Assembly: GCA_041242255.1 (NCBI GenBank)
Contig: JBESAV010000001.1
Span: 603,449-667,448 of the forward strand
Source: Candidatus Altimarinota bacterium
Lineage (GTDB): Bacteria > Patescibacteriota > Gracilibacteria > UBA1369 > GCA-2718715
Reading direction: 5' to 3'
Length of the DNA stretch: 64,000 nucleotides
Shown: positions 22,112-38,688 of the stretch, one piece after another
How the letters are laid out: each line of letters begins with the position of its first letter
Numbering within the stretch: position 1 is the stretch's first letter
Made by a program: the position numbers and the translations under genes
The notes under the pieces: model-generated
What the model was told of the DNA's origin: nothing
Databases searched by the model: none
Seen by the model: only the letters and a program-made list of their open reading frames with translations

Positions 22112-22150
22112 CAAAAAAGCTTATCTTCACAAAAAAGGTAAGCTTTTTTA
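22112..22150. terminator. hairpin flanked by A-run and T-run between convergent genes (bidirectional terminator)
   Basis: aaaaaAGCTTAtcttcacaaaaaaggTAAGCTTtttt. Confidence 0.55.
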
Positions 22151-22618
22151 GGTACCTATTACAAAACCAGTTTTATCATGATCTCGAGCATAGTCATTCA
22201 GGATCTTATAAAGTTTCCATACTGAGTCCAAGTTTTTGATAACTATAGACGTATTAATTGTCGGCGCACTAATCTTAAGATCTCCATATTTCAAGTATCT
22301 TCCAACTATACTTTGGCTAACTTCAATTTCCTGAATGTATTCCATCGAAAAACTTTTTTTCTGTTGAAACAAGAACCCTTTATTTATCTCAAGAATATTA
22401 TCTTTTACCTTAACAACATTGAAATGCCATAAAATACAAAGCCAACTCATCCCAATAGCCATAGTTCCTAAAAAGAAAAAGATCCCTGTCAAATCAGTCC
22501 CTGCATTTAGGAGGTAGGAAACTATTCCCAAAACTACAGCAAGTTTCATAAAATCTCCCAAAAGACTAAACACACTTTTCCTAAACTTCAACGACGTTCT
22601 TATCTTAACTTCAGTCAC
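22148..22618 (-). CDS. membrane protein with bacterial PH (YdbS/YdbT-like) domain
   Basis: 156 aa. Two TM helices are followed by a short beta-rich domain (FSMEYIQEIEVSQSIVGRYLKYGDLKI) typical of bPH_2. Confidence 0.55.
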   Translation of the reverse strand: MTEVKIRTSLKFRKSVFSLLGDFMKLAVVLGIVSYLLNAGTDLTGIFFFLGTMAIGMSWLCILWHFNVVKVKDNILEINKGFLFQQKKSFSMEYIQEIEVSQSIVGRYLKYGDLKISAPTINTSIVIKNLDSVWKLYKILNDYARDHDKTGFVIGT

Positions 22619-22669
22619 AATCTAAATTTAAACTACCAAAATTGTAACTGATTTAATTAAAACCCACAA

Positions 22670-23215
22670 TCATCTATATAGATCCAAATAGTTAGCCACC
22701 AGCCTTCTATTCGTATTCCAGCTATACGTAAAGTCAGAAGTAGTCTCTAAGGAATTAAAATCCTCTAGATCCATTCTCTCATCAATCTGTGCGATAGAAA
22801 CATTAAAATCACGTTCTTTTTTTCCTTGTAGTTCCAAATAGAAATCGTATTTTTTACCATCAATAAATCTAGACAGCTCTCCAGTTTTAAACTCTTCCAA
22901 GTCTCCAGCATGATAACAAATACTCAACTGACCCATGCTCACAACTCTAATTCCGTTAACAGTCGTATACTTTAGTCTTAACCTAATCGACATACCAAGT
23001 GCCGTAAAAATAACATAAGAAAGAGCCAACTTATTAAAGCACATAACAAATATCAAACCAGTTATCAAAGTACTATCAATCATTATTATTTCAGATTCTT
23101 TTACAATTTCTTCATTTTGTCTTCTTTTTTCAGCTTTTTCACGATTAGCATTTTTACGTATCTCTAGCTGATCTTGATCTGGCTCATGACTTAAAAGCTT
23201 CCTTTCTACAACCAT
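22670..23215 (-). CDS. hypothetical membrane protein
   Basis: 181 aa with a charged N-terminus and one or two TM segments. Its first 8 codons and its promoter lie inside the 75-bp direct repeat. Confidence 0.55.
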   Translation of the reverse strand: MVVERKLLSHEPDQDQLEIRKNANREKAEKRRQNEEIVKESEIIMIDSTLITGLIFVMCFNKLALSYVIFTALGMSIRLRLKYTTVNGIRVVSMGQLSICYHAGDLEEFKTGELSRFIDGKKYDFYLELQGKKERDFNVSIAQIDERMDLEDFNSLETTSDFTYSWNTNRRLVANYLDLYR

Positions 23216-23267
23216 ATAATTCTTATTAACTCACTAAATTTACAAAACAAATCCCTTTTTGGCAAGC
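23193..23267. repeat. 75-bp direct repeat, copy 1 (identical to 25046-25120)
   Basis: aaaagcttcctttctacaaccatataattcttattaactcactaaatttacaaaacaaatccctttttggcaagc is found twice with no mismatch. Confidence 0.95.
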
Positions 23268-23273
23268 AAGCCG

Positions 23274-23302
23274 TTGACAAAAGTAGAATCTGTAAGTAGT
23301 AT
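23274..23302 (+). promoter_or_regulatory. candidate promoter of the ABC-F cassette
   Basis: TTGACA, 17 nt spacer, TAGTAT, starting 7 nt after repeat copy 1. Confidence 0.5.
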
Positions 23303-23532
23303 TTGAACATATAAACACAAACATGACAAACGTCCTAGAATTATATATATCAAAAACAACCAACCAAGCGTATTTAGCATGGAAGTCTAGGTCGTGTAGT
23401 CTTTGTCGAACTGTTGCTCATTTACAAGTGTAAATGAGGGTAATAAAACAAAGGTTTTATCATCTCTTTCACGCTTGTTAAACATTTACACCGTACTATA
23501 GGTGTTTTTATTTATATGAGTAACTAAACAAG
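23303..23532 (+). promoter_or_regulatory. long 5' leader with 36-codon uORF (23323-23433) and alternative hairpins ending in a hairpin plus T-run (attenuator-like)
   Basis: Stem 23417-25/23430-38 (9 bp). Alternative stem 23428-36/23483-91 (9 bp). Terminator-like stem 23488-92/23501-05 followed by TTTTT. Confidence 0.45.
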
Positions 23533-24975
23533 ATGTTAATTATCAAAAATTTAAACCTTAAAGTCCTAGACAACCACAAGGAAACCTTAATCAAAGAGGT
23601 GAATTTATCCTTAGATTCTAGTTCAAAGTCTAAGGTAGCCCTCATCGGAGAAAATGGCTCAGGAAAATCAACTCTCTTAAAAGCAATTTATAATAATCTA
23701 AACAGTTGTATAAATATTCAAAATGAAAAGATATTATACTTAGAACAAACAAAAAAATTTCCAGAAAATCAACTTTTTGGCGAGATTCTTGAACAGCACA
23801 TTGATATTAATTCAGAATATTACAAAATTGATATAATTTTAGACGAATTTTCTCTTCAAGAAGATATAGTACTGAAGCCCGTGAAACATCTAAGTGGAGG
23901 AGAGCTTCTTAAACTACAGCTTGCTGAGCTAATGATTCAAGACCCTACTATACTTTTATTAGACGAACCTACAAATCATTTAGATCAAGATGCAAAAATA
24001 TTTTTATCAAATTTTATTAAAAATTTTACAGGTTCAATTCTACTAGTAACTCACGATAGGGAATTTATTCAAAACACAACAAATCAAATTTGGGATATTG
24101 ACCCTGTGACTAAGACTCTTCATAAGTTTACAGGCACTTTTAAAGATTGGCGTATTCAAAAAGCAAACAAAATACAAAAATCTAATCATATGCATAATAG
24201 TATTCAATCTGAGATTCAAAGCATTCAGAGTTGGTTAACTGCAAATCAATCACATCCAAAGTACAGATTTAGCGCCATTGTAAAAACAAAAAAACAAAAA
24301 ATTGAAAAGCTTAAGGCAAAATTAGATGATATTCAAAAATATAAAGATAAAAAAATAACTCTTACAAAAAATTCAAATCTAACTTATAAACAAAACCTAC
24401 TTATCTCATACGAGTTCATAGAGCATCCTTTGTACGGTAATTTAAAAGGTAAAATTTACAACCAAGACCAAATTTTACTTACAGGTAAAAATGGTTCCGG
24501 GAAATCAACACTTTTAAAGTATTTATCAAATCCAGTTAATATCCAATCAGTTTATCCAATTAAAAATCCTAAAACTAGAGTTAACATATTTCATAATAAA
24601 GAATTAAAAATATTTACTTTGAGTCAGTCTTCAAAGCTTCCACAAAGTAAAACTGTATATGAAATATTAGTAAGCAATAACAAGTTTAATCACACAAAGG
24701 TTTTCCAATCTATGGCAGATTTACGCCTAAAACATTTATTAAAGCATAAATTATCTGATCTTAGTGGAGGAGAACAAAAAAGAGTTGAGTTAGCAATTTT
24801 AAGTGCTCATCAACCTGACATGATTTTACTGGATGAACCAACAAATCATTTGGATATCTATACGCAGGAACAAATTCAAAATTTCCTTAAAGACACACAA
24901 GTAACTTTTATTATAGCTTCTCACGACAATTTCTTGATAGACAATCTGAATTTCAAAAAATACATTCAATTGTAA
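23533..24975 (+). CDS. ABC-F family ATPase (two tandem ABC domains, no transmembrane domain)
   Basis: 480 aa. Walker A GENGSGKST and GKNGSGKST. Signatures LSGGELLK and LSGGEQKR. Walker B LLLDEPTNHLD occurs twice. A basic helical inter-domain linker is present. Confidence 0.9.
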   Translation: MLIIKNLNLKVLDNHKETLIKEVNLSLDSSSKSKVALIGENGSGKSTLLKAIYNNLNSCINIQNEKILYLEQTKKFPENQLFGEILEQHIDINSEYYKIDIILDEFSLQEDIVLKPVKHLSGGELLKLQLAELMIQDPTILLLDEPTNHLDQDAKIFLSNFIKNFTGSILLVTHDREFIQNTTNQIWDIDPVTKTLHKFTGTFKDWRIQKANKIQKSNHMHNSIQSEIQSIQSWLTANQSHPKYRFSAIVKTKKQKIEKLKAKLDDIQKYKDKKITLTKNSNLTYKQNLLISYEFIEHPLYGNLKGKIYNQDQILLTGKNGSGKSTLLKYLSNPVNIQSVYPIKNPKTRVNIFHNKELKIFTLSQSSKLPQSKTVYEILVSNNKFNHTKVFQSMADLRLKHLLKHKLSDLSGGEQKRVELAILSAHQPDMILLDEPTNHLDIYTQEQIQNFLKDTQVTFIIASHDNFLIDNLNFKKYIQL

Positions 24976-24988
24976 GAATTATTAATAC

Positions 24989-25017
24989 AAAAGATCGCCT
25001 TTTGGGTGATCTTTTTG
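24989..25017 (+). terminator. intrinsic terminator after the ABC-F gene
   Basis: aaAGATCGCCttttGGGTGATCTtttt. Confidence 0.6.
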
Positions 25018-25038
25018 TAATGATTCATGTAGACCTAT

Positions 25039-25068
25039 TTAACTCAAAAGCTTCCTTTCTACAACCAT
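25039..25068 (-). pseudogene. duplicated 5' fragment (MVVERKLLS*) of the 22670-23215 gene inside repeat copy 2
   Basis: The ATG and first 8 codons are identical to the intact gene, followed by a stop. The same upstream TTGCCA-17-TAAATT promoter-like sequence is retained. Confidence 0.6.
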
Positions 25069-25120
25069 ATAATTCTTATTAACTCACTAAATTTACAAAA
25101 CAAATCCCTTTTTGGCAAGC
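25046..25120. repeat. 75-bp direct repeat, copy 2
   Basis: Identical to 23193-23267. Confidence 0.95.
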
Positions 25121-25233: not shown

Positions 25234-25638
25234 ATGTCCATACTAAAATTTGAAAACGCAACTAAATATCCATCTAAATATCCAGAGATTGAAGCTGTAA
25301 GTTTGGGAGAACCTATTTTCTCATCTCGCTCAGAAGAAATACAAGCAAAACTCTTAGGTGTCCTTATAAAAGACCTTAAGGCATTATACCCTGACAAAAA
25401 TCCTGAACCGACCAATATAAATACTCAAGATCCAGAAAGTGACTCTACAGTTTTTTATGGTATAAAATCTGAAACAAATAATGATTCAAATTACGAGACA
25501 ACAATAAGCTTTGACCATAAAGAAGACCCTCACAACCCAGGGCAGCAAATCTACCGCACTTTAACAGCAACATTCAAGTCTAACCAAATTACCTCTCTAG
25601 GAGTATCTTGGTCCTGGGAGCCAAACCTAAAAGCCTAA
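25234..25638 (+). CDS. hypothetical protein
   Basis: 134-aa ORF followed directly by a strong terminator hairpin. Confidence 0.5.
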   Translation: MSILKFENATKYPSKYPEIEAVSLGEPIFSSRSEEIQAKLLGVLIKDLKALYPDKNPEPTNINTQDPESDSTVFYGIKSETNNDSNYETTISFDHKEDPHNPGQQIYRTLTATFKSNQITSLGVSWSWEPNLKA

Positions 25639-25670
25639 AAAAAGACCACCATTCCAAGGTGGTCTTTTTT
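25637..25670. terminator. bidirectional intrinsic terminator
   Basis: aaaaAAGACCACCattccaaGGTGGTCTTtttt between convergent genes. Confidence 0.75.
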
Positions 25671-25685
25671 ATGATTAATTTGAAA

Positions 25686-26783
25686 CTAAACCTTATCAAC
25701 ATAGTCACCATAACCTCTTTCTTCCATCTCAGCTAAAGGTACAAATTCAAGCGCTGCACCATTCATACACCATCTTTCTCCAGTTGGTTCAGGCCCATCT
25801 TGAAACACATGACCTATATGATTATCTCCGTACTTAGATCTCACCTCAGTTCTAGGAAGAATAAGTTTATAATCAGGCTTAGTTACAACAAACTCATTCG
25901 AAATAGGGCGAACAAATGAAGGCCAACCAGTCCCTGAATCAAATTTATCCTTTGATGAAAACAAAGGCTCTCCAGATAATATATCTACATAAATTCCATC
26001 TTCATAGTTTTTATCCAAGTTCCCCTCACTGAAAGGTTTTTCAGTACTGTCTTTTTGTGTAACTTTATATTCAATCTCACTTAGCTCTTCTTTCAAAACC
26101 TCATCAGAAGGCTTTTGATAAGACGCCCAAACACTTTTACTATTCCCAAATTCATCTAATCGATCACCCCAAACCCCCTCGATAAAAGCATCTCTTCCAC
26201 TAGCTCTTCTATAAGTATTGTATCTTCCAGGATTCTTCAGATAATAATCTTGATGATATTCTTCAGCTCTGTAAAAGTCATACCCCATCTCTACAGCAGT
26301 AACTATTTCAGATTCAAAAACACCTTCTTCATTTATTTCATCAATGACTCTCAAAGCAATCTCTTCCTCTGATTCATTGTTTGGGTAGATAGCAGAAGTA
26401 TAAGAGTACCCCCTATCTCTAAAAGAACCACCTTCATCAGTTGGATCGTGGTGTCTAAAGAAATACTGCACTAACGTTTCATAATCTACTACCTCAGGGT
26501 CATAAACAACTCTTACAGTTTCACGATACCCTTCATGAGATTTATATGTAGGGTTTTCAGCTTCTCCACCCATAAATCCTGAAATAGCTTCTTCAACTCC
26601 CACTAATTTTTCAAAGTCTCTCTCCACACACCAAAAACAACCACCAGCAAAGTAAGCACTTTCAAGTTCATCATAATCTTTCACCTCCAAAATAGAGGTA
26701 TCTCTAGTTAAACGGTCGTGAGCATAAAACCCACCAACAAATACAATAAAAGCCACAATAATACCTATCAAAATTTTCCCCAT
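25686..26783 (-). CDS. msrAB: membrane-anchored bifunctional methionine sulfoxide reductase MsrA-MsrB fusion
   Basis: 365 aa with an N-terminal TM helix. MsrA motif GGCFWCVE. MsrB motifs GTGWPSF and HIGHVFQDGP. Confidence 0.93.
   Translation of the reverse strand: MGKILIGIIVAFIVFVGGFYAHDRLTRDTSILEVKDYDELESAYFAGGCFWCVERDFEKLVGVEEAISGFMGGEAENPTYKSHEGYRETVRVVYDPEVVDYETLVQYFFRHHDPTDEGGSFRDRGYSYTSAIYPNNESEEEIALRVIDEINEEGVFESEIVTAVEMGYDFYRAEEYHQDYYLKNPGRYNTYRRASGRDAFIEGVWGDRLDEFGNSKSVWASYQKPSDEVLKEELSEIEYKVTQKDSTEKPFSEGNLDKNYEDGIYVDILSGEPLFSSKDKFDSGTGWPSFVRPISNEFVVTKPDYKLILPRTEVRSKYGDNHIGHVFQDGPEPTGERWCMNGAALEFVPLAEMEERGYGDYVDKV

Positions 26784-37206: not shown

Positions 37207-38688
<1,482 letters not shown>

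Follow-up and report, generated by a model that had tools for sequence, protein, structure and literature searches.

The window considered here is a stretch of 64,000 nucleotides (positions 603,449 to 667,448 of the forward strand of contig JBESAV010000001.1, GenBank assembly GCA_041242255.1) from an uncultured small-genome bacterium of the Candidate Phyla Radiation (CPR; Peregrinibacteria), the genome of which is a single contig of 1.0 Mb. Its GroEL is most similar to proteins labelled Candidatus Peregrinibacteria (identity of about 70%). At positions 23533..24975, the window carries a gene for an ABC-F ATPase of 480 amino acids with a ribosomal-protection-like profile. The gene is preceded by a leader (23274-23532) that holds a promoter, an upstream open reading frame (uORF), several RNA helices, and a hairpin resembling an intrinsic terminator. 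This leader is the subject of the present analysis as a candidate attenuator that depends on the ribosome. Positions are counted within the window, and all leader features lie on the plus strand.

In the single window sequence, matches to promoter and terminator patterns were not enriched over shuffles. For this reason, the case rests on a comparison with seven homologous loci. These loci (L023, L024, L025, L026, L028, L029, and L032) encode the seven closer ABC-F homologues, which are 46–64% identical to the window protein; the relatives were obtained from a protein database, and their contigs were then looked up. Together with the window, they provide the eight leaders referred to below, which represent only about five independent lineages. 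In all seven loci, a non-coding stretch of 296–435 nt precedes the ABC-F gene and aligns with the window leader, so the leader is kept across these orthologues in differing genomic contexts. Common to all are the promoter, a uORF that starts with ATG, a hairpin at the uORF stop codon, and a hairpin followed by T5–T7 that lies 22–30 nt before the ABC-F ATG. The 241-nt leader of the window is more stable than 200 of 200 dinucleotide shuffles (z = -3.79). The covariance models of Rfam 15 gave zero matches inside 23216-23532, even at E ≤ 10.

The promoter (23274..23302) is composed of TTGACA at 23274 and TAGTAT at 23297 with a 17-nt spacer. The pattern TTGAC[AG], 16 or 17 nt, TAnnAT is found at the aligned position in all relatives. 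The predicted transcript start is near 23309, which leaves a 5' untranslated region of about 14 nt ahead of the uORF. The uORF itself (MTNVLELYISKTTNQAYLAWKSRSCSLCRTVAHLQV; 23323..23433) has 36 codons and ends with the stop codon TAA (23431-33). Its length is exactly 36 codons in seven sequences and 37 in L032. The frame contains 0 internal stops in 7/7 sequences, and the other two frames contain 1–4 stops each. Per sequence, a frame of 35 codons would be open by chance with a probability of 0.07–0.22, and at least four independent lineages are represented.

The two halves of the uORF have evolved in different ways. At codons 2-19, substitution is saturated (15, 15, and 17 of the 18 sites vary at codon positions 1, 2, and 3), and yet the number of these codons never changes. 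Codons 20-36, which encode W..R.CSLCHTVAHLQx, are variable mainly at third positions (6, 4, and 11 of 17 sites at the respective positions). Within them, R23 (AGG/AGA/CGA), C25 (TGT/TGC), S26 (AGT/AGC), and L27 (CTT/CTA) show synonymous changes only. The peptide can also be followed to more distant orthologues (L035, L036, and L004/L006; ABC-F identity of 39–43%), whose leaders cannot be aligned at the nucleotide level. The core [WY]-x2-[RK]-x3-L-x2-T is retained in them, and a homologous peptide is likewise present in L032. When 205 genomes of the order were searched with a peptide profile, matches were found only in G000, G004, and G007, each adjoining an ABC-F gene. Judged from this comparison, the uORF is a coding sequence that is probably translated, and the half with W20-x2-R23-x-C-S-L27-x2-T30 is shown to be under selection at the level of amino acids. 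Codons 20-30 are the conserved core and the likely sensor.

The distant leaders have features of their own. In L036 (1-207), the codon homologous to the stop in the stop-codon hairpin is CAG instead of TAG, and the peptide is eight codons longer. Just past this later stop lies a strand (CATTCGT) complementary to the ABC-F start (ACGAATG), and their pairing encloses a strong terminator, AAGCCG TTTT CGGCTT T6. The leaders of L004/L006 (genus g5) are about 258 nt long, with a 30-codon uORF (MFSSTFLKDRK...GRALRLAFTAS); an 8-bp hairpin holds the stop of this uORF in its 5' arm, and no convincing terminator was seen. Such leaders are a diverged form within the one family.

Neither the uORF nor the ABC-F gene has a Shine–Dalgarno (SD) sequence. 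GGAG or GAGG stands upstream of only about 2% of the genes in this genome, which is rarer than at control positions. Instead, a weak T-T-A-A signal with a fixed position, -13 to -10, stands before start codons across the whole genome. A preliminary description of this DNA had listed the missing SD sequence as a caveat against translation of the uORF. The absence is real, but it carries no weight because the genome uses no SD sequences. The 3' end of the 16S rRNA (38650-38688) still has CCTCC despite this. The GAGGG that follows the uORF stop was also considered as the SD sequence of a hidden open reading frame. This candidate was rejected, as no suitably spaced start codon follows and SD sequences are not used in the genome.

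Several helices are formed by the uORF and the RNA downstream of it. The hairpin P1 (23417..23438) pairs CTCATTTAC (23417-25) with GTAAATGAG (23430-38) over 9 bp (-8.9 kcal/mol) and carries the uORF stop codon within its 3' arm. It is paired in 100% of cells among seven close sequences, with wobble variants, and it is kept with a different sequence in L032, L035, and L036. The hairpin resembling an intrinsic terminator (23488..23510) pairs ACACC (23488-92) with GGTGT (23501-05), is followed by TTTTT, and ends 22 nt before the ABC-F ATG. A hairpin of 5–9 bp with T5–T7 is present in 8/8 leaders, and also in L036, with unrelated stem sequences (ACACC/GGTGT, ACACCTT/AAGGTGT, AGTCTCT/AGAGGCT, GCACCTA/TAGGTGT, and AAACTAGA/TCTAGTTT). 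The interval between the uORF and the ABC-F gene is too short to hold a second promoter; therefore, expression of that gene requires read-through of the hairpin and U-run. The positions given for the promoter, the uORF, P1 (there called hairpin 1:2), and the terminator-like hairpin with its T-run in the preliminary description were exact. All four recur in the homologous loci: the promoter is kept in the relatives, and the uORF, P1, and the terminator with its U-run are conserved with compensatory changes that preserve the stem pairing across lineages.

Two further structures had been missed, and both are better supported than the antiterminator pairing drawn at that time. One of them, P2 (23424..23478; -17.4 kcal/mol), is a long imperfect hairpin that runs from codon 35 over the stop and the invariant GAGGG to CACGCTTGT. 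Its 5' strand spans codon 35 to stop+10, the partner strand lies some 50 nt farther downstream, and an apical hairpin occupies 23443-23460. The basal stem of 7 bp is paired in 100% of cells, and three of its pairs show compensatory (two-sided) changes. Its covariation score was equalled by 2/500 shuffles, and slid controls were about 45% paired. Codon 36 (V/A/M/T), the sole non-conserved codon of the C-terminal half of the peptide, covaries with its partner in P2. P1 and P2 are mutually exclusive, and in the majority of the eight leaders, P2 belongs to the minimum free energy (MFE) structure. The other structure, H2, pairs GTTGCTCAT at uORF codons 31-33 (23413..23421) with ATGAGTAAC at positions -17 to -9 relative to the ABC-F start (23516..23524; -11.4 kcal/mol). 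In this way, it covers the TAA signal of the lineage at -12 to -10. Only 0.7% of shuffles do as well as the window (p=0.007). In 5/8 leaders, H2 has an energy of -10.6 to -12.8 kcal/mol with p≤0.05 against shuffles, and the strand that it pairs in L025 and L028 is the ABC-F AUG itself. The global MFE structure of the window joins H2, P2, and the terminator in a three-way junction.

Two smaller helices lie within the uORF. H1 pairs its start region (ACAAACATGAC; 23317..23327) with codons 26-28 (GTCTTTGT; 23399..23406); the pair 60:143 of this helix, G-C in six sequences, has become A-U in the window through a double change (GCA to ACA with AGC to AGT). The P0 hairpin (23364..23382; CCAAGC...GCATGG) ends in the W20 codon. 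Its pairs 99-101 and 110-112 with 120-125 show several two-sided changes among the relatives.

The effect of a stalled ribosome was simulated by masking a footprint of 29 nt at each codon and folding the rest at equilibrium. In these simulations, the ABC-F initiation region was most accessible with codons 28-31 in the P site. At the peak, its accessibility rose from 0.38 to 0.87 in L025, from 0.42 to 0.66 in L028, and from 0.39 to 0.57 in the window. In silico, the leader behaves like an erm-type leader, in which a leader pairing sequesters the initiation region and a stalled ribosome relieves it. An ermC-like 3:4 pairing, of the 3' strand of P2 with the ABC-F start codon, seemed promising by eye in all eight leaders and was also tried; it was rejected, as it occurs at chance level (p 0.11–0.41). 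Together, P2 and H2 point to translational unmasking at least as much as to antitermination. Truncated transcripts were folded as well, and the predicted occupancy of the 5' arm of the terminator was inconsistent.

The regulated protein has two nucleotide-binding domains, with Walker A motifs at 39 and 318, LSGGE at 120 and 410, and an interdomain linker of about 95 aa. It is devoid of an arm insertion, a C-terminal extension, and a membrane domain. The best family model is NF000355, "ribosomal protection-like ABC-F", which matches end-to-end (E 5.7e-85). EttA (197 bits) and Uup (191 bits) match over partial stretches only, so the housekeeping placement that the preliminary description had kept in view is not the best one. 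The protein scored far below the cutoff of each of the Msr, Vga, Sal, Lsa, and OptrA models, and a sequence search of the PDB left the subfamily unsettled. Orthologues are patchy (8/41 related genomes), and the same genome has a separate Uup-like ABC-F paralogue of 597 aa. The best match to NF000355, the patchy distribution, and the separate paralogue therefore mark it as an accessory ABC-F that resembles antibiotic resistance (ARE) ABC-F proteins but cannot be placed in a named subfamily. Its evolution can be gauged against the proteins P0006/P0129 of one 972,823-bp Joint Genome Institute contig: GroEL is 91% identical to that of the window, and ABC-F is 49% identical. P0006/P0129 and the window proteins probably come from the same two genomes. 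On these figures, ABC-F evolves at a far higher rate than housekeeping proteins do, and the core of the leader is nearly invariant. In six relatives, a half-transporter (ABC_membrane and ABC_tran; 593-599 aa) overlaps the ABC-F stop by 4–11 nt. The exporter gene lies at 3403-5230 in L023, L024, L025, L028, and L029 and at 1862-2695 in L032, which suggests an operon of ABC-F and exporter under the control of the leader.

Taken together, the stretch 23274-23532 is best read as a ribosome-dependent cis-regulatory leader, an attenuator, of the ABC-F gene, with a probability of roughly 70%. A single promoter serves the uORF and the ABC-F gene, and its transcript encodes first the leader peptide of 36 residues and then ABC-F. 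With no ribosome stalled, H2, P2, and the terminator would come together in the three-way junction. The U-run would then be the end of most transcripts, and in those that are read through, the initiation region would be masked by codons 31-33. A ribosome arrested with approximately codon 28-31 in its P site would have residues 20-30 in the upper exit tunnel. It would cover the 5' strands of H2 and P1 and leave the ABC-F initiation region exposed. In the window, segment 2 (23428-36), once freed, might in addition form a helix with 23483-91 that competes with the terminator. The most likely trigger would be a compound directed at the ribosome, or else some other stress on translation, which ABC-F would relieve and thereby close a feedback loop. 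The output is probably translational, through the unmasking of H2, and probably also transcriptional, in a way that is beyond the reach of equilibrium folding. The weight of the two may differ between lineages. A more specific version can be proposed tentatively and at rather less than even odds. It holds that an undescribed conserved arrest peptide ([WY]-x2-[RK]-x-[CL]-x-L-x2-T, fixed at 36 residues) acts on the SD-independent ribosomes of CPR bacteria, senses a natural ribosome-targeting compound or intrinsic stress, and switches ABC-F, together with the exporter in the relatives, through the three-way junction with dual outputs.

The rival explanations differ mainly in what they make of the peptide and of H2. 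The preliminary description had drawn a pure transcription attenuator with the pairings 1:2, 2:3, and 3:4 and no translational component. Its central element is the 2:3 pairing of GTGTAAATG (23428-36) with the candidate antiterminator strand CATTTACAC (23483..23491), which overlaps the 5' arm of the terminator. In the window, this pairing is a perfect helix of 9 bp (-8.7 kcal/mol), and the TAAATG variant of segment 2 found here is matched by CATTTA in segments 1 and 3; segment 2 is moreover the best upstream partner of the terminator 5' arm in 6/8 leaders. Its strength is marginal when compared with shuffles, however (window p=0.07, L029 p=0.03, others 0.2–0.8), and it is absent in L025, L028, and L032. 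P2 is more stable and would capture segment 2 earlier than the terminator arm is transcribed, the simulated stalls never abolish the terminator, and H2 is left unexplained. The pairing is thus found as described, but it is weakly conserved, and a mechanism of this kind alone is unlikely. Of the earlier hint that the cassette responds to ribosome stalling, the attenuator core is supported by conservation, and the exact switch is a hypothesis. It is less probable still that the leader is a regulator made of RNA only, such as a 5' untranslated region that binds a protein or ligand or a leaky terminator that acts as a constitutive damper, with the open frame as a by-product. The 3' half of the uORF is indeed conserved in its nucleotides, including third positions (ACT GTT GCT CAT CAA), and lies inside H1, H2, P1, and P2, and the simulated terminator forms whatever the position of the ribosome. 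Such a regulator would not account for a 35-codon frame that is open across about five independent lineages, for an ATG and a length that are invariant although the first 19 codons are saturated with change, for R23, C25, S26, and L27 changing only synonymously, or for a peptide core that outlasts nucleotide alignability. The absence of a match to an Rfam family also argues against it.

If, on the other hand, the peptide is real, it could be a functional small protein, either metal-binding through Cys and His or exported. The hairpin and U-run would then be an intra-operon terminator that sets stoichiometry, and partial terminators after small precursor genes are known. The conserved CxxCH...H pattern and the exporter gene that overlaps the ABC-F stop in the relatives fit this idea. 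It is made improbable by the loss of Cys and His in the homologous peptides of L035, L036, and L004, by the lack of sequence conservation in the N-terminal half, and by the absence of modification or processing genes nearby. Moreover, the stop and the last codons are part of two exclusive covarying helices, which a mere small-protein gene would not need. The same residues might suggest an attenuator of the trp/his/leu type that senses starvation for charged Cys or His tRNA, since codons 25-33 include two for Cys and two for His in most of the close relatives. No single codon is repeated in tandem, though, and the regulated gene encodes a translation-factor ATPase and not a biosynthetic operon. 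Matches to Thr/Phe leader models lie elsewhere (25570-25705) and far below the threshold. The model with Cys or His as the sensed residue was rejected because neither residue is conserved in the wider peptide family, and starvation sensing is very improbable here.

A number of observations weigh against the reading of the leader as a ribosome-dependent attenuator. The eight leaders are few in independent lineages, and P1 shows just one two-sided change among the seven close sequences. H2 is missing in L026, L029, and L032 when pairing is compared with shuffles in the eight leaders, and the gain in accessibility calculated for the window is modest. In most relatives, the antiterminator pairing does no better than chance, and the terminator still forms with stalls simulated at every codon (P≥0.54, mostly >0.85). 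Finally, the NF000355 score of 286 bits is below the curated cutoff of 380; a resistance function of ABC-F, suggested by profile similarity only, is therefore unproven.

The surroundings of the cassette differ from those in the relatives. A strong terminator (AAAGATCGCC...GGGTGATCTTTTTG; 24990..25018, plus strand) closes it. A direct repeat of 79 nt (23189..23267) ends 6 nt before the -35 box, and a second copy (25042..25120), identical at 78/79 positions, brackets with it the unit of promoter, leader, ABC-F, and terminator. In the relatives, the leader and ABC-F directly follow a gene with an SLH domain, and the repeats are missing. For this reason, the ABC-F unit appears to have been relocated or inserted at the site in the window. 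The leader thus occurs in differing contexts and travels with its gene. The exporter gene is missing in L026 and in the window; in the latter, ABC-F has a terminator of its own behind it, and then copy 2 of the repeat. Copy 1 of the repeat contains the start and the first nine codons of a minus-strand gene of 181 aa (22670-23215), together with the DNA upstream of it, which makes copy 2 a dead duplicate. Small open reading frames flank the cassette on both sides (25234-25638 and 22148-23215): one of 134 aa on the plus strand and two, of 156 aa (bPH_2) and 181 aa, on the minus strand. None of the three had a match in NCBIfam, and the 156- and 181-aa genes are not at the syntenic position in the relatives.

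Further copies of the leader were also sought. A degenerate DNA pattern (P1 with GAGGGTAA) matched only the window's own genome among the 205 genomes of the order. Its single metagenome match, L033, was discarded as an unrelated palindromic terminator. The pattern and peptide-profile searches gave no further leader copies in the genomes searched. Back-translated scans for close ABC-F relatives returned two distant matches in genome contigs and none in metagenome contigs.

Bacteria sense antibiotics that target the ribosome by means of leader-peptide attenuators, and every newly found arrest peptide has added to what is known of the exit tunnel. If the leader is a drug sensor, episymbiotic CPR bacteria would encounter and answer translation inhibitors in nature, and the sensor would be a compact, portable module of about 220 nt. 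If the reading as a conserved arrest peptide is true, it would be the first cis-acting sensor of translation stress described in CPR bacteria. The combination of a fast-evolving ABC-F with a fixed leader core also means that the regulatory element is apparently under stronger constraint than the protein.

Related logic is known from other bacteria. In the ermC and ermB leaders, a ribosome stalled on segment 1 causes the downstream segments to re-pair, which unmasks the initiation region of the resistance gene; these leaders mask an SD sequence and work without a terminator. The topology of P1, P2, and the masked start in the window is the same as in this type of leader. Unlike erm, the window leader masks the AU-rich region from -17 to -9 (the AUG in L025 and L028), and its terminator lies inside the long-range helix. 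The ARE ABC-F genes vmlR, vga(A), and lmo0919 of Firmicutes are preceded by a short uORF with a terminator and an antiterminator and are induced by the antibiotics against which they protect. Compared with them, the window leader belongs to a CPR bacterium, encodes a much longer peptide of invariant length, and shows no Rfam or sequence relationship.

The streptococcal pair msrDL-msrD, which includes an ARE ABC-F gene, was studied by Fostier et al. (2023; PMC10314930). In that study, the arrest of MsrDL, a very short peptide, prevents a Rho-independent terminator from forming, and the stalled ribosome itself is the obstruction. As in the window, the leader ORF is co-transcribed with the ABC-F gene, and the terminator lies between them. 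Arrest on the leader peptide relieves attenuation of msrD, and a feedback of the ABC-F protein on the stalled complex has been proposed (PMC10314930). The window differs from the msrDL leader in its peptide of 36 residues, a stop about 55 nt upstream of the terminator, the extra helices P1, P2, and H2, and the lack of an SD sequence. A comparatively long leader ORF with alternative stem-loops and a terminator is found in bmrB-bmrCD of Bacillus subtilis. In the study of Reilman et al. (2014; PMC4191407), three alternative stem-loops and an intrinsic terminator are described for the bmrB leader, and its translation is required for antibiotic-induced read-through into the ABC genes. In relatives of the window, an ABC exporter gene likewise comes after the ABC-F gene, apparently within one operon. 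The bmrB terminator is placed inside the leader coding region in that account, whereas that of the window is downstream of the stop; the first regulated gene is a transporter in bmrB-bmrCD and an ABC-F gene in the window, and the two leaders share no sequence similarity. Relative to the known attenuators, the leader described here would thus be new in its occurrence in CPR bacteria, its independence of SD sequences, its long peptide of invariant length with a new conserved core, and its terminator, which is predicted to lie inside the helix that masks the start.

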